Positions 17,272-43,142 of a DNA stretch of 64,000 nucleotides are shown in pieces. Where the stretch lies: the NCBI GenBank assembly GCA_913056345.1, contig CAJXMH010000003.1, positions 38,694-102,693 of the forward strand, given 5' to 3'. The stretch is from an uncultured Flavobacteriales bacterium. GTDB taxonomy: Bacteria; Bacteroidota; Bacteroidia; Flavobacteriales_E; Vicingaceae. The translations under genes and the position numbers were made by a program. Positions within the stretch are counted from its first letter, which is position 1, and the number at the start of each line of letters is the position of its first letter. The notes beneath the pieces are model-generated. The model was not told the origin of the DNA. It searched no databases and saw nothing but the letters and a program-made list of their open reading frames with translations.

Positions 17272-17493
17272 TTCCGCTGAGAGGGTTAAAGGTTCAATGG
17301 TCTATCAGAAATCAATATTCTTTCAAAAGCTAACAAGATAGCAAAAATTGGCAGGAGAAGTTCAAATATCTTAGATTCAAGCATTCACCTTTACTTTAGT
17401 GTTTAACGGTAAAATCATAAAGCATTGGGCAAATCCTGCAAAAATGACGGCATTTAAATTTCATTAGGAATTAAGAATTTTCTAAAAATTAGA

Positions 17494-17537
17494 AATGTGG
17501 TATGGTGCCACTTTGTAAAAAGCCGAGGGGGTAAAAT
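17494..17537 (+). repeat. copy C: more decayed, internally deleted duplicate of the DUF2480 gene 3' end
   Basis: aatgtggtatggtgccactttgtaaaaagccgagggggtaaaat. Its core gtgccactttgtaaaaagccgagggggtaaaat matches copy A gtgccgctttataagaagccgaggaagtagat at 25/32 positions by hand alignment, and the aatgt head is retained. Confidence 0.75.
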
Positions 17538-17596
17538 TTTTAGTTTGAAGAAATGTGATTATAGTATCCGATACAATTATTTATAACAGATTGAGG

Positions 17597-18010
17597 TTAA
17601 AATAAAAGTAAGTTTCCCTTTTCTAAAATAGATTTGTTGACTGATATCTCTTTTCTAGTAAAAGATTGGACGAGAGATTGAAATTTGCACACGGTGAAGA
17701 CTAATAAGTTTTGACTTCTTTTGCTTTCTTCCTTCAAGTAAATGGAATTTTTATCAGTTTTACATATCTTCCAATCAAACATAGTGCTATTATGTTTAAT
17801 TGTTTCACCTAGTTTGAAGCCCAAAAGGTTTAGCCACTTTTCATCTAAAGTAATAAATTGAAACTTGCTGTTATCTATGACTATTTGATCCATATCACTA
17901 CCTTCAATAATCATCAATTTATTTAAATGGTATATTACTTTGTAAACTTTTTTGTTGCACTGAATCAATGCTCCTAGCATATTCAGCTTTTCATTTAAAC
18001 CTTCATTCAT
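17597..18010 (-). CDS. hypothetical protein (ORFan, AT-rich)
   Basis: 137-aa ORF with no competing ORF and no motif I recognise. Confidence 0.5.
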   Translation of the reverse strand: MNEGLNEKLNMLGALIQCNKKVYKVIYHLNKLMIIEGSDMDQIVIDNSKFQFITLDEKWLNLLGFKLGETIKHNSTMFDWKICKTDKNSIYLKEESKRSQNLLVFTVCKFQSLVQSFTRKEISVNKSILEKGNLLLF

Positions 18011-18138
18011 GGGTAATATTTTATATTAGATATAAAAGGGTATTTATGAAGTTTCCCTCATATATCTATTACAACAATTTTTGAAAATAGGTTGAAATTC
18101 ATCTAATCTGCTACGGTGGCGTCAAATGGTGTTGATTC

Positions 18139-18798
18139 TCACTTCTTTAATGTTTTTATGCTCCAAACCGAAAAAATTAAGATATATCTTACAGGAAAGG
18201 CAATTAAAATGAGTGTAATGAATGTGAGTTTAGTTTTGTGATAAATTTCTTTCTCACTAAGCTCGTCTTTTTCTTTGTAAAGGTCTGCTAGTTTGGGACT
18301 AATTCTTTTTCGCTGAGCCTTCTTTTTTCTTATTATTTTAAGATTTTCTGCATCTGACTTCGTAAATAAATTTTTGTTAATGAAAGACTTGAAATCTAAC
18401 CAATTGTAAAAGCCAAGTTCATTAAGCTTTTCTATTTGTTTTTGCGTCCATTTATAATTCCAGTAATGAGCTAAGCTGTCTGAATTGTTTAGTGATTTTA
18501 AATTTTTATTCCAAAACTCATCACTGGATTCATACTGATCTACAGCAAATAGTGATTTATATCTTTCATAAAATTGATTTCGGACAAGACTTTTCTTTTT
18601 TAGAGGCTCATTCAATAATTGAATCTCGTTTCGAAGTTCAGTATAGTGGTTAGAAGATTGCTGAATCTGATAATCTAATATTGAACTGTAACCAACAATA
18701 GCTAAATAAGTTAATATGGTCAAGATGCAACAGCCCAATAGAAACAAAAACTCTCTAGCAATTATTTTTTTAGTGTGTAGTTTCATATACAAATGCAA
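18139..18798 (-). CDS. hypothetical membrane protein (N- and C-terminal TM helices)
   Basis: 219-aa ORF with hydrophobic segments FLFLLGCCILTILTYLAIVGY and LTFITLILIAFPVRYILIFSVW flanking a ~150-aa K/N-rich region. The start may be the MKLHT at 18786. Confidence 0.55.
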   Translation of the reverse strand: MHLYMKLHTKKIIAREFLFLLGCCILTILTYLAIVGYSSILDYQIQQSSNHYTELRNEIQLLNEPLKKKSLVRNQFYERYKSLFAVDQYESSDEFWNKNLKSLNNSDSLAHYWNYKWTQKQIEKLNELGFYNWLDFKSFINKNLFTKSDAENLKIIRKKKAQRKRISPKLADLYKEKDELSEKEIYHKTKLTFITLILIAFPVRYILIFSVWSIKTLKK

Positions 18799-18932
18799 AA
18801 AGTACTAAATATCTAAATATATATAGAATTGTAGCTTTTTACTTCATAAAAGCTAAATCAACTTATATTTTACAATTGCTCTGGACTGACTTTCAGGGAA
18901 GAGACCTGCGGCAGAATGATGTTCATAAAAGG

Positions 18933-18966
18933 CAAAAAAAAGAGCCAAGTATTAAACTTGACTCTT
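18933..18966 (-). terminator. rho-independent terminator downstream of tRNA-Phe
   Basis: On the minus strand the stem is AAGAGTCAAG/CTTGGCTCTT (10 bp with one G.U), the loop is 7 nt, and a T8 run follows. It begins 6 nt after the tRNA 3' end. Confidence 0.8.
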
Positions 18967-18972
18967 AAAAGG

Positions 18973-19045
18973 TGGTGCCAGCTGGAATCGAACCAGCGAC
19001 ACAAGGATTTTCAGTCCTTTGCTCTACCAACTGAGCTATGGCACC
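18973..19045 (-). tRNA. tRNA-Phe (GAA)
   Basis: The reverse complement GGTGCCATAGCTCAGTTGGTAGAGCAAAGGACTGAAAATCCTTGTGTCGCTGGTTCGATTCCAGCTGGCACCA folds as a canonical cloverleaf. The acceptor is GGTGCCA/TGGCACC, the anticodon stem is AAGGA/TCCTT with loop CTGAAAA, and the T arm is GCTGG-TTCGATT-CCAGC. CCA is not encoded. Confidence 0.97.
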
Positions 19046-19134
19046 TTTTTTTATTGGTCGGCAAATGTAAAAATAATATTTAAGTCAACTTCAATCAGGC
19101 AAAAGATTTTTAAAAGCATTGCTTAGCTTTGATT

Positions 19135-35265: not shown

Positions 35266-35592
35266 ATGAAGAATAAACTCAATTGGGAGGTATTTTCAAA
35301 TCAAGAAAGAAACAATTTAATCGAAGAATTGAAAAGAATCATATCCTCTAATGATGGTTGTATTGTAAACTTCAATTTCTTCTCCGACTTAGCTCTTAGC
35401 TTAACCATTGAGATTGAAGAAAGGAAAATAGAAAACTTACATAATGAGCTTAGTCGTGTAGTGACAATTTCGGAAATAGGAGTGAGTAAATTTGATGAAG
35501 ATTCGGTAAGAGAATGGTGGTTGTTTCTTAATGTTACCTTTAACAAAGGTAAAGGCAACATAAAAATGCATATACCTGATGTTCCAGGATAA
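35266..35592 (+). CDS. hypothetical protein
   Basis: 108-aa ORF with no recognised motif. It is the first gene of the accessory patch. Confidence 0.45.
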   Translation: MKNKLNWEVFSNQERNNLIEELKRIISSNDGCIVNFNFFSDLALSLTIEIEERKIENLHNELSRVVTISEIGVSKFDEDSVREWWLFLNVTFNKGKGNIKMHIPDVPG

Positions 35593-37344: not shown

Positions 37345-37540
37345 TTTTATAAATACAAAAGTTTCCTTTGTTTTCGCCTAATTCCTTTGGGTCTATAAAC
37401 TGACTGAACAGATCGCTATCAAAAGAACGGAGAAAAGATTGTAAGCGTTCGGAAGGAGATAAAGCGAGAAACTCAGCCTCTCTTCTGCGATTGTTTTCAG
37501 CTTTAGTAGCAAAGTGTATTTTCTTTTCTCCTGTTCTCAT
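37334..37540 (-). CDS. small partner protein of the NTase (antitoxin-like, hypothetical)
   Basis: The track ORF is 126 aa from 37714. I prefer the internal ATG at 37540 (MRTGEKKIHF..., 68 aa) because a TACCTTTG box sits 9 nt upstream of it. It overlaps the NTase start by 11 nt. Confidence 0.5.
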   Translation of the reverse strand: MRTGEKKIHFATKAENNRRREAEFLALSPSERLQSFLRSFDSDLFSQFIDPKELGENKGNFCIYKNEV

Positions 37541-37549
37541 CTTAATTAC

Positions 37550-37557
37550 CAAAGGTA
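37550..37557 (-). promoter_or_regulatory. -7 promoter box (TAnnTTTG) for the small-ORF/NTase pair
   Basis: On the minus strand TACCTTTG lies 9 nt upstream of ATG 37540. A second similar unit (plus strand cttaaataaaaaaggtaag, 37577-37595) repeats 36 nt further upstream. Confidence 0.3.
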
Positions 37558-37767
37558 AGTATTGATTTACTAGTCGCTTAAATAAAAAAGGTAAGCAAAC
37601 AACTCTTCCCCTTTTCCCCTCTTTTACTTTTATTGCTAAGGCTAATTTTTTGTATCTTGAGCGTTGAAAAACAAGCCGATGGAAAGCCGATTTAAAAGGT
37701 ACAAACAAAATCAATTTTAAAAATCATTACATTCTTTGTATCTAGATTTAAATATGATTCATAAATA

Positions 37768-38262
37768 ATGGTCTTTGATAATCATATATTTTATTCAACA
37801 AATTCGTATTTGGCTTACCAAATAAATGAGAACTTCTATAATGGTATTCATTTTGTTTGGTGTTCTCCTGTTTTTGATAGTTCGGCACTTGCAAAATTTG
37901 ATATTAGAAAAAATATACCACCTTCATCCAACCCATATAAGATTTATCTATCATTAAAAGAGGATGTAGAAAATAACGATTTACACAGTTCAAAAATTGA
38001 TTCTAATAAAAAAGGTATAAAGGCAGGAGCATCAATAATGTTAAATAAAGGGCTTATTAGCGAGCATGAGTTCGCTATGATTATTAGGACGGTAGACACA
38101 AGTAGCCTTAAAGACTATAGACCTGTTTTATATCTTATTCCCAAAACACTTGTTAATCAAAAATTGGAAGTGGTTGATGTTGATGAAAAAGCTAATCCAT
38201 TAAGTGTGGAATATAGAATACTAGATTTAACAAGAGAAGAGTTTGAAATAATTGAATTCTAA
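37768..38262 (+). CDS. hypothetical protein (ORFan A of the AT-rich operon)
   Basis: 164-aa ORF in very AT-rich DNA with no motif I can assign. No competing ORF exists on any frame. Confidence 0.6.
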   Translation: MVFDNHIFYSTNSYLAYQINENFYNGIHFVWCSPVFDSSALAKFDIRKNIPPSSNPYKIYLSLKEDVENNDLHSSKIDSNKKGIKAGASIMLNKGLISEHEFAMIIRTVDTSSLKDYRPVLYLIPKTLVNQKLEVVDVDEKANPLSVEYRILDLTREEFEIIEF

Positions 38263-38266
38263 TTTT

Positions 38267-39148
38267 ATGGATATAATTTCACCATATCAGTATATAAACG
38301 CTTTATCTAACTTGACAAAAAAAGTTATGATAAAAAAGTATTCTATTGTTCAAAATGAAACCCTAAAATCAAAATCAGGCGATATTGAGAACGAGATAAA
38401 TGAGAGCTTTAAAAAAGACTTAGGATTTGGCATAAAAGAAATCAATCAATATGATCAAATTAAAAGATATGAGAATCGAATAGATTTAGAATTTTCTAAA
38501 ATATCTAAACAAAAAATCCTTAAGTATCCCATTGAAGATGAAATAGAGCTTGTAAAAATTGCTTCAAGGATTTCAAATGATTTTATAAAGCAATTTGAAA
38601 TTGAAGTTAACCCTGGAATAAGAGATTTTATAAAAAGAATAAAGTTTACAGTTCCTCAAATAGCAACTTTAGCTAAAAGAGCAAATAGAGTATTTGCTAT
38701 ACCAAATAAATCGAATCAAGTGAGGGATAATATTCTTCTTACTTCAAAAACCACTTATTTAAAAAGGGAATACAATGTTCTGATACACTTAAAAAAAAAC
38801 AAAGATAAAGGCAAAGAAAACTTCCTTATTGTTGTCGGATTTTTCTTGTTTCAAAACTCTTTTACTGAAAATCACAATCCTATAAGATTATTTCTGACTA
38901 CATTATTTAAATATGGAGTTAATATCAAAATAAATAAAACCACGAAAAGATTTTTCCTTGAAGAAATAGTTTTGAATAAAGAGTTGCATGGGAATATGAA
39001 AATATTGGAGGTAGAAGAGGACGAAAAAAAATCAAAAATTTGGGTTTCTGCTCCAACTTATATTAATCAGCTTCACACACAAATTTCTTTTTGTTACGGC
39101 TTCAATGAAACAAGGTATTTAAAAGATTTCTTTAATAGGGAAATATAA
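38267..39148 (+). CDS. hypothetical protein (ORFan B of the AT-rich operon)
   Basis: 293 aa from ATG 38267, which lies 4 nt after the stop of ORFan A. The alternative is TTG 38252 with an 11-nt overlap. The product is K/N/I-rich with no recognised motif. Confidence 0.6.
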   Translation: MDIISPYQYINALSNLTKKVMIKKYSIVQNETLKSKSGDIENEINESFKKDLGFGIKEINQYDQIKRYENRIDLEFSKISKQKILKYPIEDEIELVKIASRISNDFIKQFEIEVNPGIRDFIKRIKFTVPQIATLAKRANRVFAIPNKSNQVRDNILLTSKTTYLKREYNVLIHLKKNKDKGKENFLIVVGFFLFQNSFTENHNPIRLFLTTLFKYGVNIKINKTTKRFFLEEIVLNKELHGNMKILEVEEDEKKSKIWVSAPTYINQLHTQISFCYGFNETRYLKDFFNREI

Positions 39149-39267
39149 ACCCCCTTCCCGCGCGATTTTATCGCCTGGTACATGAATAATTTTCAGTAAC
39201 TCTCTATCTTGCTTGCTAGTCATTTAAAACCTCTTGAATGAGATCACGTCCTTTACTAAGCTAATCT

Positions 39268-39696
39268 ATGCTAATCTTCTTTTTGCTGTTTGGTCTCGGA
39301 AATTCTTTTTCTCAAAATAGCAAGCTTACAAAGCTCAATAAGAAATATGTAAAAGCCCATATGGATACGAGTTCGCTAACCGTGATTTTTAGCCATCGTT
39401 GTGGGTATAGTCTTTTGCTCAATAAGTTTTTACAGGAAGAAAAAGTATGCGAGAAGTATCAGGTTTCACTAAATATGTATGATGTAACTTACCTCGACCT
39501 TCCGGCTTTGAAGAAGGAAGAGGTTCAGTGGAACCAATATCCAGAATGCTCTAATACCGAAGTGCTAGAAAAAGGGAGCTTCCAATTAGCAAAACTTAGA
39601 CCTATTCTTTTTTATAAGAATCGCAAAGGGAAAGTGAAAAAAATAATGGGGTATAACAAAGATAAGCTTGTTCGATTGCTGCAAGCTAGTTTGTAA
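39268..39696 (+). CDS. hypothetical secreted protein, possibly thioredoxin-like fold (CxxS)
   Basis: 142 aa with a short hydrophobic N-terminus (MLIFFLLFGLGNSFSQ). VIFSHRCGYSLLL (CxxS) and PILFYKNRKGKVKKIMGY resemble thioredoxin-fold landmarks, which I recognise only weakly. Confidence 0.45.
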   Translation: MLIFFLLFGLGNSFSQNSKLTKLNKKYVKAHMDTSSLTVIFSHRCGYSLLLNKFLQEEKVCEKYQVSLNMYDVTYLDLPALKKEEVQWNQYPECSNTEVLEKGSFQLAKLRPILFYKNRKGKVKKIMGYNKDKLVRLLQASL

Positions 39697-39741
39697 AAGG
39701 CTTCAGTTTTCAAATAAGCAATTACTTCATTTCCTCAAACC

Positions 39742-39761
39742 CAAATTCGCTCGCCCCAGCC
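39742..39761 (+). repeat. distal (relic) copy of the tatD promoter-region repeat core
   Basis: caaattcgctcgccccagcc is identical to 40766-40785. By eye, weaker similarity continues for about 50 nt downstream, where ttgctaattcaaaactaca aligns with the tatD start atgcttattgatacccata at 12/19 positions. Confidence 0.8.
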
Positions 39762-39886
39762 CAAAATATTTCGCACCTTGCTAATTCAAAACTACATTTG
39801 TGCATCCATAATCCAATATAGCTTAACTATCGTCTAACTTTATTACTTTTTAGTAACCAGAACTTAGGTTGCAGTCTACCATAAAA

Positions 39887-40213
39887 ATGAGAAATAAAAA
39901 ATCTAGACGTATTGCCCCGAGTTCTGCCTACATTGGGTCTGGTAATAAAACCTCTGTTTTTTCAAGAAAGGCAAGAAAGCCTTTTCAAGATATGGCTGAA
40001 ATTTATAAAAATGAAGCCATAAAAATCAAAGGAAATCATGAAAAGAAACTCTTCGAAAAGTTAAGTGAGGAAGACAAGAAGTTAATTAGAGAGAGAATCA
40101 TAAGGAATAAGATTAAGGAAAAATGGAGGTTTCTTGTGATCTTGATCATATCTTCTTTTATGACCATCTTAATTGTGACTGCCATTGTGATTTTATTAAA
40201 AATTTACTTCTAA
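39887..40213 (+). CDS. hypothetical tail-anchored membrane protein
   Basis: 108 aa from ATG 39887. The N-terminal region is K/R-rich and the C-terminus has one TM (FLVILIISSFMTILIVTAIVILL). Confidence 0.45.
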   Translation: MRNKKSRRIAPSSAYIGSGNKTSVFSRKARKPFQDMAEIYKNEAIKIKGNHEKKLFEKLSEEDKKLIRERIIRNKIKEKWRFLVILIISSFMTILIVTAIVILLKIYF

Positions 40214-40230
40214 ATCTAACATTGCTAACT

Positions 40231-40701
40231 ATGAGGTTATTGACTTATTTCTTTTTTATTATACCAACACTACTTTATGTTGATTTAGTTGCCCAGGATA
40301 TCGATTATTTAGAAATCCGATCTGAAGTTAATTTATTGTCCTGCGGCAGTACAAGTGAGGAAAACTTAATTCAGACTAAAAAGAATCTGCTTCGTTTAGA
40401 TTCTGCTAGAATAGAAAGCAATATTGAAGAATACTACTACGATTTAGCAATGTGTTATAGCAAATTTGATTTGCTGACAGATGAGATAAATCAAAGTGAC
40501 TCTTCACTGATGTATAAGTTTCGTGCATTCTCCCACAAACCAGATCACTCACCAACCTTATGGTCTTTGGCTTTTCACTACTTAGTCGTTGATAATAACT
40601 GTGAAAAAGGAAGATACTACCTTAATCAATATAAAAAACATACTCCTAATCAATATTGGGACTATGATCAAATTGATAGTATTACAAAATATTGCAATTA
40701 G
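40231..40701 (+). CDS. hypothetical secreted protein
   Basis: 156 aa from ATG 40231 with a signal-like N-terminus (MRLLTYFFFIIPTLLYVDLVAQ). The 5' extension of the track ORF to 40123 overlaps the preceding gene and looks spurious. Confidence 0.5.
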   Translation: MRLLTYFFFIIPTLLYVDLVAQDIDYLEIRSEVNLLSCGSTSEENLIQTKKNLLRLDSARIESNIEEYYYDLAMCYSKFDLLTDEINQSDSSLMYKFRAFSHKPDHSPTLWSLAFHYLVVDNNCEKGRYYLNQYKKHTPNQYWDYDQIDSITKYCN

Positions 40702-42601: not shown

Positions 42602-42731
42602 CTGCTTGGCAAAAAGATCAAGCGTGGGCAAGTTCTAAGGTTTGAAAATATTTGTAATTTGGCAGGCTCGCCAAGCAGTTGGTGAGAATTACCTGCTGCA
42701 AAATAGGGTTCTGCCTAAGGCGGAAATAAAC

Positions 42732-42818
42732 GGAGAGGTGGCCGAGTGGCTTAAGGCGCACGCTTGGAAAGCGTGTATGCGGGAAACCGTATCGGGGGTT
42801 CGAATCCCTTCCTCTCCG
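42732..42818 (+). tRNA. tRNA-Ser (GGA), class II with long variable arm
   Basis: GGAGAGGTGGCCGAGTGGCTTAAGGCGCACGCTTGGAAAGCGTGTATGCGGGAAACCGTATCGGGGGTTCGAATCCCTTCCTCTCCG. The acceptor is GGAGAGG/CCTCTCC and the anticodon stem is CACGC/GCGTG with loop TTGGAAA. The variable arm is ATGCGG-gaaa-CCGTAT. The T stem GGGGG/CCCTT needs two G.U pairs. CCA is not encoded. Confidence 0.88.
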
Positions 42819-42857
42819 CAACGATAGGTAAATATTAATCGAGAAGTTCTTTTTAGG
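42811..42857 (+). repeat. att-like direct repeat, copy 1 (last 8 nt of tRNA-Ser plus 39 nt downstream)
   Basis: cctctccgcaacgataggtaaatattaatcgagaagttctttttagg. Confidence 0.85.
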
Positions 42858-42932
42858 ATTGAAGTAAAAACTATTGATTCGGACCACCGATAGGGGGTGA
42901 GAGTCGCTACCCGACTGAATAGGCGCGGCCTG

Positions 42933-42978
42933 CCTCTCCGCAACAATAGGTAAATACTTAATGAAATGTTCTTTTAAG
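42933..42978 (+). repeat. att-like direct repeat, copy 2
   Basis: cctctccgcaacaataggtaaatacttaatgaaatgttcttttaag starts 122 nt after copy 1. The first 24 nt match at 23/24, and overall identity by eye is roughly 85% with two 1-nt indels. Confidence 0.85.
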
Positions 42979-43142
42979 ACCTCCAACTGTAGATGATTTA
43001 AATAGATTTTAAAGTGAAATTTGTATTAATTCTTGAAATCCTTCGTTAGATATTACCAGAATTCAATTAAGTGCATTAAATTCGCAACTGTTAACCATAA
43101 ATATAAACGCTAACATTTAATCAGATCATTAATTAATTCATT

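Follow-up and report, generated by a model that had tools for sequence, protein, structure and literature searches.

A low-GC gene pair of an uncultured Flavobacteriales bacterium belongs to a large unnamed family of putative mobile conflict modules

What is the role of two small, tightly coupled genes that resemble no catalogued family and lie among housekeeping genes of an uncultured Flavobacteriales bacterium (Vicingaceae)? The two genes, termed A and B here, are located in a stretch of 64,000 nucleotides (contig CAJXMH010000003.1 of assembly GCA_913056345.1, positions 38,694 to 102,693 of the forward strand), and this whole stretch is called the window. An earlier reading of the sequence alone had described the pair as an ORFan operon, adjacent to a nucleotidyltransferase (NTase) gene pair, and as a candidate for an undescribed, acquired and coupled defence or addiction module. 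The results described below suggest that A-B is probably a horizontally mobile two-gene conflict module, either of the anti-phage (abortive infection) type or toxin–antitoxin (TA)-like, which belongs to a large unnamed family built around protein A. The core of the sequence-only reading is supported by the synteny of A and B, by their foreign GC content and by links of their relatives to TIR, HNH, SMEK and NACHT domains. The ORFan status and the relevance of the NTase pair are not supported. The features of the locus are as follows.

37768–38262, plus strand: gene A, ATG start, 164 aa, from the open reading frame (ORF) call.
38267–39148, plus strand: gene B, ATG start, 293 aa, with an alternative TTG start at 38252.
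38260–38269, plus strand: junction of the A stop and the B start (TAA, TTTT, ATG), with a 4-nt gap.
37715–37767, plus strand: intergenic DNA 5' of A, the presumed promoter site of A-B, assigned by its position only.
37500–39250, no strand: low-GC island of 26–30% GC, coinciding with the A-B cassette and its upstream spacer.

Both coupled ORFs were recovered at the positions proposed earlier. The homologues of B open with MDIISP or MEIISP, and the database protein P0025 has 293 aa. Thus, ATG 38267 is preferred to TTG 38252 as the start of B. The resulting 4-nt spacing is consistent with translational coupling. The control region upstream of A had been given as 227 bp. This length holds if the divergent minus-strand ORF starts at ATG 37540, but the gap is only 53 nt if that ORF starts at TTG 37714, as used by the gene callers. 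With the ATG 37540 start, the promoter region may reach back to 37541. A scan for sigma-70-type promoters gave nine sites versus 11.6 expected from shuffled sequence, with none 5' of A, and the promoter types of Bacteroidota are outside the tool. The promoter and terminator scan was uninformative.

In A-B, the GC content is 27.5%, whereas the window as a whole has 38.8%. The A-B segment ranks 5 (z = -4.15) among 1253 sliding windows of its length, and the minimum of 0.272 falls in the same region. Third codon positions have a GC content (GC3) of 0.21 in A and 0.22 in B, versus 0.42–0.47 in the tatD, GT9 and asparaginase genes. A sharp composition shift of foreign origin had been proposed from a spot count of G and C, and these values confirm it beyond that count. 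The low-GC island is a compositional signature of the horizontal acquisition of A-B.

The family is far larger than it first appears. A word-index search gave 24 relatives of A, and two relatives of B besides the window protein itself. An exhaustive search with the A profile gave 724 clusters (50% identity) with E <= 1e-3, including 527 with E <= 1e-10 and 173 with E <= 1e-30. The increase from 24 proteins to 724 clusters shows that the ORFan appearance of A is an artefact of word-indexed searching, and the ORFan label was abandoned. In the word-index search with the B profile, the yield was low (four proteins only), because AT-rich words swamp the candidate list. According to scans of genomes, viruses and metagenomes, A is present among Bacteroidota in Chitinophagaceae, Sphingobacteriales, Pontibacter, Hymenobacter and Bacteroides. 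It is also present in Chlorobiota, Gemmatimonadota, Alpha- and Betaproteobacteria, a metagenome-assembled genome (MAG) of Syntrophobacter and a MAG of Mycobacteriaceae (Actinomycetota). The spread is patchy over at least six phyla. The same scans gave 173 metagenome stretches and four viral contigs.

A and B travel together. A homologue of B is located directly 3' of A in all 27 loci of Bacteroidota, Chlorobiota and related metagenomes that have enough sequence. In four further loci (a Hyphomicrobiales MAG, a Mycobacteriaceae MAG, an IMG/VR contig and a soil contig), a distant B, termed B2, occupies the same position. B2 is related to B over 239 collinear columns (hhalign 95%, E = 4e-8). The synteny of A with B or B2 is therefore observed in 31 loci with unrelated flanks, as the earlier proposal had predicted for the homologues of a true pair. 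No third gene common to most A-B loci was found. The only neighbour families present in at least three independent loci are a tyrosine integrase and one unannotated small-protein family (L019, L040 and L044). Over the whole family (B, B2 and the partner C described below), the partner nearly always starts -38 to +14 nt from the stop codon of A.

The two proteins also diverge together. The pairwise identities of the A proteins follow those of the B proteins (Mantel r = 0.70), a correlation reached by none of 2000 permutations. In every one of 276 locus pairs, A is the better conserved protein (mean identity 48%, versus 22% for B), and B evolves about twice as fast. The co-divergence is only compatible with a possible interaction between the two proteins. 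Full-length A and B are conserved at 20–87% identity over dozens of loci in several phyla, with lengths and invariant motifs kept. Together with the co-evolution, this answers the concern that the ORFs might lack conservation. The window A is 43–87% identical to its homologues, and the window B 46–76%. The scores of the window proteins against the family profiles (268.6 bits for A and 387.7 bits for B) are inflated, as these profiles include the window sequences. At one locus, A is read in two frames (L016 1081–1579, profile positions 3–115 and 122–164) upstream of an intact B. This broken A is either a frameshift or an assembly error.

The partner of A is not always B. Domain architectures and partners were surveyed for the best 150 of the 724 A clusters. 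The commonest partner, termed C, is an acidic helical protein of approximately 115 aa, which is found at the position of B in 48 loci. C is unrelated to B (hhalign probability 0.5%), and neither C nor B2 has a significant match in Pfam, NCBIfam or PADLOC. In three loci (L026, L028 and L097), a bSEFIR-type TIR protein is located at the position of B. These TIR partners match the PADLOC bSEFIR model with 5e-60 and 1e-68, and Pfam TIR_2 with 3e-18 and 1e-21. They are separated from A by 3 nt in L028 and L097, and by 75 nt in L026. A NACHT/STAND NTPase (2.7e-10) takes this position in L088. Using hhalign (0.5%) and hmmsearch (E > 0.1), no B-like or C-like module was detected in C, in the C-terminal domains of the TIR partners, or in the GAF kinase described below.

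Relatives of A are also fused to other domains. Five fusions to TIR_2 (P0054, P0088, P0098, P0170 and L096; about 1e-18), one to HNH (P0143; 1.7e-8), one to SMEK_N (P0171; 5.7e-36) and two to a response-regulator receiver domain, REC (P0096 and P0099; about 5e-11), were detected, and A is the C-terminal domain in all of them. In L033, a TIR-A gene is followed by a second TIR protein. C is fused to pentapeptide repeats and TIR (1.3e-24), or to transmembrane segments with or without a TIG domain. Its fusions to a GIY-YIG-like domain and to a nucleotide cyclase are marginal, at or under the Pfam cut-off. In the MAG GCA_035279585.1, a REC-A protein of 317 aa is followed after 11 nt by a histidine kinase of 592 aa with GAF and HATPase_c domains (L117–L120, 6001–8744), among housekeeping genes. 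As REC-A is followed there by the kinase without a B or C module, A behaves as a regulated output domain. Judged from these sequences, the A module stays the same while its partners are exchanged and effector domains are added on. In an account of short-Argonaute/APAZ systems, TIR, HNH and SMEK are likewise described as interchangeable effector heads (PMC10810196).

The pair is found in mobile contexts. Homologous tyrosine integrases are located beside A-B in four independent loci (L008 99–1427, L019 11440–12687, L020 11593–12924 and L044 6379–7785), and the integrase of L008 has the domains Arm-DNA-bind_5, Phage_int_SAM_5 and Phage_integrase. These results suggest that integrative elements often carry the A-B cassette at their edge. 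On the conjugative 444-kb plasmid pB of Sinorhizobium chiapasense (NZ_CP144207.1; L115 6022–6839), an A-C pair is present whose two products are annotated as hypothetical proteins. Approximately 1.5–5 kb 3' of this pair, a QueC-like '7-cyano-7-deazaguanine synthase', a long XRE-family regulator and a PIN-domain gene are located, and these surroundings may be a small defence cluster. A divergent A (2e-32), in which Cys32 is replaced by Phe, is encoded in the Christensenellales phage PV036454.1 (L116 4995–5887) with an overlapping ORF of 122 aa. The two lie between the portal and HNH genes as an insert of opposite orientation, and may represent a defence moron carried by the phage or a derivative with a counter-defence role. 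The absence of a mobility gene noted earlier is correct for the window locus; it does not extend to the relatives.

Defence genes were also observed near the pair. A-B loci directly adjoin a CAP12/PycTIR-type TIR gene (L012 and L013), a MazG-like gene with a ResIII/SLFN-helicase-S24 pair (L007) and a PIN gene (L006). The 149 neighbours surveyed at 20 A-B loci include PADLOC matches to SoFic, type IIG restriction–modification, Pycsar cyclase, MADS, AbiO, PDC-S35 (TIR), PDC-S04, PDC-S24, PDC-M28C and CARF. These matches are only suggestive, because no genomic baseline was computed. The protein encoded 5' of A-B2 in L032 has the look of an S24/CI repressor; its PDB search was empty, and it was not used.

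What kind of protein is A? Profile searches were performed against Pfam, NCBIfam (June 2026), PADLOC-DB v2.0 and PHROGs, the curated libraries being dated 2023 to 2026. Neither A nor B gave a significant match in these four libraries, so that the statement that no family signature can be recognized holds, and no match to a housekeeping or known family was encountered. The best PADLOC matches (E = 0.025 for A and 0.031 for B) are too weak to place either protein in a catalogued defence system, and C and B2 gave no PADLOC match. The only recurrent signal in A is a helical segment (residues 88–120) resembling SHOCT_2 (PF20612), with 19.2 bits versus the gathering cut-off of 24, which was observed below threshold in 8 of 24 members. 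It was not used for classification, because the score is under the Pfam gathering threshold. When the A2, A4 and B alignments were searched as profiles against PDB sequences, the matches did not exceed chance level (PBP2a, E about 1; CusC, E = 0.04).

According to an alignment of 130 diverse members, Ser10, Glu148 and Phe159 of A are invariant, and His28, Trp31, Cys32, Ser54, Pro56 and Asp71 are present in at least 90%. The window A carries all nine residues. Members of the A-partner family were defined by an A with these nine residues and a B, C, TIR or NACHT partner within about 15 nt, and the window pair has this arrangement. A is soluble and mildly acidic, and acidity is found across the family according to the isoelectric points. 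Thus, a role in nucleic-acid binding is disfavoured.

The model of A has a predicted local distance difference test (pLDDT) value of 83.7 and a predicted template-modelling (TM) score of 0.77. It is a mixed alpha/beta structure with a six-stranded sheet and a helical insert. Foldseek gave no match with E <= 0.001 in the PDB (best 0.59) or in BFVD (best 0.099), and no Argonaute-related match. The faint matches include Tpt1/KptA (ranks 2–3 in the PDB, E = 0.59–0.77) and a PolyVal ADP-ribosyltransferase (rank 1 in BFVD, E = 0.099). These ADP-ribosyltransferase-like matches are not significant (TM about 0.2, probability <= 0.14), and the H-Y-E and R-S-E motifs of ADP-ribosyltransferases could not be mapped onto A. 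The PDB profile searches were also empty. Identity with an ADP-ribosyltransferase was set aside as unproven and is kept as a lead only. Of the profile and fold comparisons suggested earlier, those for A gave a modelled fold with no significant relative, and the B model was too poor to use.

In B, the N-terminal region is helical, and an alpha/beta region comes after it. Most conserved positions of B are hydrophobic (Pro205, Phe209, Tyr216 and Gly217), with Glu69 and Glu92 in addition, and the conserved polar residues are concentrated in A, with few in B. Foldseek with the B model gave nothing usable, as the model is too poor to judge the fold, kinship with Argonaute included. In two independent assemblies (L014 2943–3818 and L015 709–1584), the B homologue is split into two ORFs of 181 and 93 aa, which jointly cover the full B profile. 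Either B occurs there naturally in two pieces, or the gene is a pseudogene.

The gene structure, foreign GC content, family size, A-partner synteny, co-divergence, partner swapping, domain fusions and mobile or defence contexts come directly from the computations. A physical interaction of A and B, the identity of the effector and any phenotype are inferred, and the following mechanism is proposed. A would be the invariant working core, a small soluble domain whose polar set (Ser10, His28, Cys32, Ser54, Asp71 and Glu148) catalyses a reaction or binds a small ligand. It would be co-produced with, and bound by, a cognate partner that is encoded directly 3' and translationally coupled. The fast-evolving B, which does not look like an enzyme, would hold A inactive or sense the trigger. 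Infection, or the loss of B, would lead A to act on a target of cellular or invader origin. C or a phospho-receiver domain would regulate the A core in other lineages, where additional effector domains carried by A or its partner (TIR, HNH, SMEK or membrane-spanning, with GIY-YIG and nucleotide cyclase as marginal cases) would reinforce it. A is favoured as the working core because it holds the conserved polar residues, because it is invariant while the partners change, and because it occupies the output position of a response regulator. In addition, the commonest partner C has no effector features, so that most systems would otherwise be effectorless.

A further proposal is possible, and we hold it only tentatively. 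A may be a new protein fold that forms the catalytic or ligand-sensing core of widespread modular prokaryotic immune systems, of which the A-B and A-C forms need no known effector domain. In the same tentative proposal, this core would in some lineages be wired to TIR NADases, HNH/SMEK nucleases, a NACHT NTPase or two-component phospho-signalling. If the minimal A-B and A-C forms work without a known effector domain, a new effector chemistry or a new signalling ligand is implied.

Several points weigh against a conflict module with A as its core. No effector, nuclease, NADase, pore or DNA-binding domain can be recognized in the two window proteins, so any toxic or defensive activity of the pair is conjectural, and among the relatives found there is no homologue of A or B with known function. 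The modelled fold of A has no significant neighbour, and thus its possible catalytic role is argued solely from the conservation pattern. The model of B (pLDDT 48), built from four sequences only, cannot be relied on, and viral contigs (four loci) show no enrichment of A. The PADLOC matches near A-B loci lack a baseline, and such neighbours are absent at several loci, the window included, where the flanks are housekeeping genes apart from the separate NTase pair. Finally, in the analogous layouts with an N-terminal effector, the C-terminal domain is usually the sensor or the partner-binding part (SAVED, STING and APAZ), and the C-terminal position of A would by this analogy favour reversed roles.

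In such a reversed system, which we regard as a rather doubtful possibility, A would be a non-catalytic sensor or adaptor of the SAVED, STING or APAZ kind. B would be the effector, replaced elsewhere by TIR proteins or by a TIR, HNH or SMEK head on A. The fusions TIR-A, HNH-A and SMEK-A seem to copy the layout of Cap5 (HNH-SAVED), TIR-SAVED, TIR-STING and effector-APAZ, an analogy drawn from established knowledge and from PMC10810196. The TIR proteins at the position of B look as if B and TIR were interchangeable effectors, A is upstream in the pair as are most type II antitoxins, and the SHOCT_2-like segment could be an oligomerization element. However, an effector enzyme would not usually have so few conserved polar residues or change at about twice the rate of A, as B does. 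The small C would leave most systems effectorless unless A is the effector, and A takes the output position in the REC-A and kinase operons. Another explanation, which appears unlikely, is a pure addiction cassette that stabilizes its mobile element or island with no role in phage defence. Such a cassette would fit a tightly coupled pair of small genes whose relatives adjoin integrases and sit on a conjugative plasmid and on prophage-like contigs; in the window, moreover, the pair adjoins another TA-like pair (the DUF2204 NTase with a small ORF). On the other hand, A and B have neither an antitoxin DNA-binding domain, such as helix-turn-helix (HTH), ribbon-helix-helix (RHH) or AbrB, nor a known toxin family. 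The TIR, NACHT, SMEK and HNH fusions and partners and the nearby defence genes are more typical of immune systems, and the window cassette is chromosomal with no mobile element to stabilize.

Two readings without any conflict are progressively less likely than addiction. A and B might form a signalling or accessory metabolic pair, in which A is a regulated output enzyme or binding domain and the immune-type fusions are incidental. The conventional two-component operon of REC-A and the GAF histidine kinase among housekeeping genes would agree with this, as would the position of A-B between housekeeping genes in the window and the several loci lacking defence neighbours. The patchy multi-phylum spread, foreign composition, differing flanks, fast partner evolution and partner swapping point instead to a mobile accessory cassette, and the associations with TIR, HNH, SMEK and NACHT are hard to square with housekeeping signalling. 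We consider a non-conflict pair quite improbable. The last reading, that A and B are chance ORFs in AT-rich DNA or decayed pseudogenes, has a negligible probability. Chance ORFs can arise even in stop-rich AT-rich DNA, and some relatives are disrupted (the split B of L014 and L015 and the frameshifted A of L016). The conservation of full-length A and B across dozens of loci effectively refutes it, and A folds confidently.

If the conflict module with A as its core is confirmed, a new and phylogenetically broad family would be added to the bacterial immune and TA-like systems. A core for which no sequence or structural relatives are detectable might then lead to an effector reaction or an immune signal not seen before. 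The natural fusions would serve as handles: TIR-A, HNH-A and SMEK-A as effector read-outs, and REC-A with its kinase as a switchable version. The family occurs commonly among Bacteroidota and soil bacteria, groups whose defence systems are little mapped so far.

The surroundings of A-B in the window are as described earlier: the flanking genes encode a GT9 protein (Pfam 3.7e-25), a divergent DUF2204 NTase (Pfam 1e-7) and TatD (precomputed Pfam). The TA-like pair at 37714–36877 on the minus strand, divergent from A-B, consists of a minimal NTase of 155 aa and a small ORF, with an 11-nt overlap. The NTase matches DUF2204 (1e-7), DUF6036 (9e-6) and weakly AbiEii. The small ORF has 68 aa from ATG 37540 or 126 aa from TTG 37714, with no family match. 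This pair had been regarded as relevant context. It accompanies A-B at no other locus examined; since neither the pair nor the shared control region is kept with A-B elsewhere, it is not part of the system.

Further small low-GC ORFs lie between the housekeeping genes at 39268–40701 and 35266–35592 (142, 114, 156–192 and 108 aa). None has a significant family match (best Imm50, E = 0.12, and PDC-M16A, E = 0.0023), and they are conserved only in same-species contigs (L001–L004). Together with A-B, they form a 5-kb accessory patch between GT9 and tatD. Both these ORFs and the NTase pair were rejected as parts of the system, as none travels with A-B elsewhere. A second low-GC patch (29–31% GC) is located at 17300–19050. 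It contains unannotated minus-strand ORFs at 17597–18010 (137 aa) and 18139–18798 (219 aa) directly adjoining tRNA-Phe (18971–19045, minus strand), and may be another small acquired islet at a tRNA gene. Several of the ORFs listed at 42618–42986 are spurious translations across tRNA-Ser (GGA) at 42732–42819 on the plus strand.

How does the A family compare with known systems? In DarTG, a small conserved protein is encoded first and a larger partner second, an order and relation of sizes also found in A-B. The comparison of A with ADP-ribosyltransferases such as Tpt1/KptA and DarT also draws on the association of its relatives with NAD-consuming TIR domains; the fold matches are non-significant as described above. 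Published bSEFIR is a single-gene system. The A family is connected with bSEFIR and other TIR defence systems (Thoeris ThsB, TIR-SAVED and PycTIR) through its bSEFIR-type partners and its TIR_2-A fusions, whereas the window A and B have no TIR domain, and TIR is present only in partners and fusions of the relatives. The PADLOC bSEFIR model covers only the N-terminal SEFIR part of the TIR partners of A, and their C-terminal domains differ.

As in type II TA systems, two small co-directional genes are adjacent in A-B with a 4-nt gap. In contrast to them, A and B contain no antitoxin DNA-binding domain (HTH, RHH, AbrB or Phd) and no recognized toxin family in Pfam and NCBIfam, and A and C are acidic. 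In the hyperpromiscuous type II TA networks (PanA/Panacea and NetFlax), one conserved small protein is combined with many unrelated partners, as is A. The partner swapping of A resembles that of PanA/Panacea. Unlike the proteins of the PanA networks, A and B show no homology to DUF4065/PanA or to a catalogued TA family, and A has no DNA-binding domain. The fusion of A to a response-regulator receiver is not a feature of TA systems. According to PMC10440598, NetFlax-type networks show neighbour swapping, tight two-gene operons, patchy mobile spread and links to phage defence, as is the case in the A family.

The short prokaryotic Argonaute (pAgo) systems SPARTA, SPARSA and SPARDA are, like A-B, co-transcribed two-gene systems with an adjacent partner gene. 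Their swappable N-terminal heads TIR, HNH and SMEK (PMC10810196) are the same repertoire that is fused to relatives of A. In contrast to short pAgo systems, neither Piwi nor MID nor APAZ was recognized in A or B with Pfam, NCBIfam and PADLOC. A has 164 aa versus about 250–300 aa for APAZ, and B has 293 aa versus more than 400 aa for short pAgo. The window pair carries no effector head, and the likeness is architectural only. The kind of system to which A-B would belong, a modular mobile two-gene immune or TA-like cassette with effector swapping, is thus well known, and the A-B-C family itself, absent from the libraries searched, is new.

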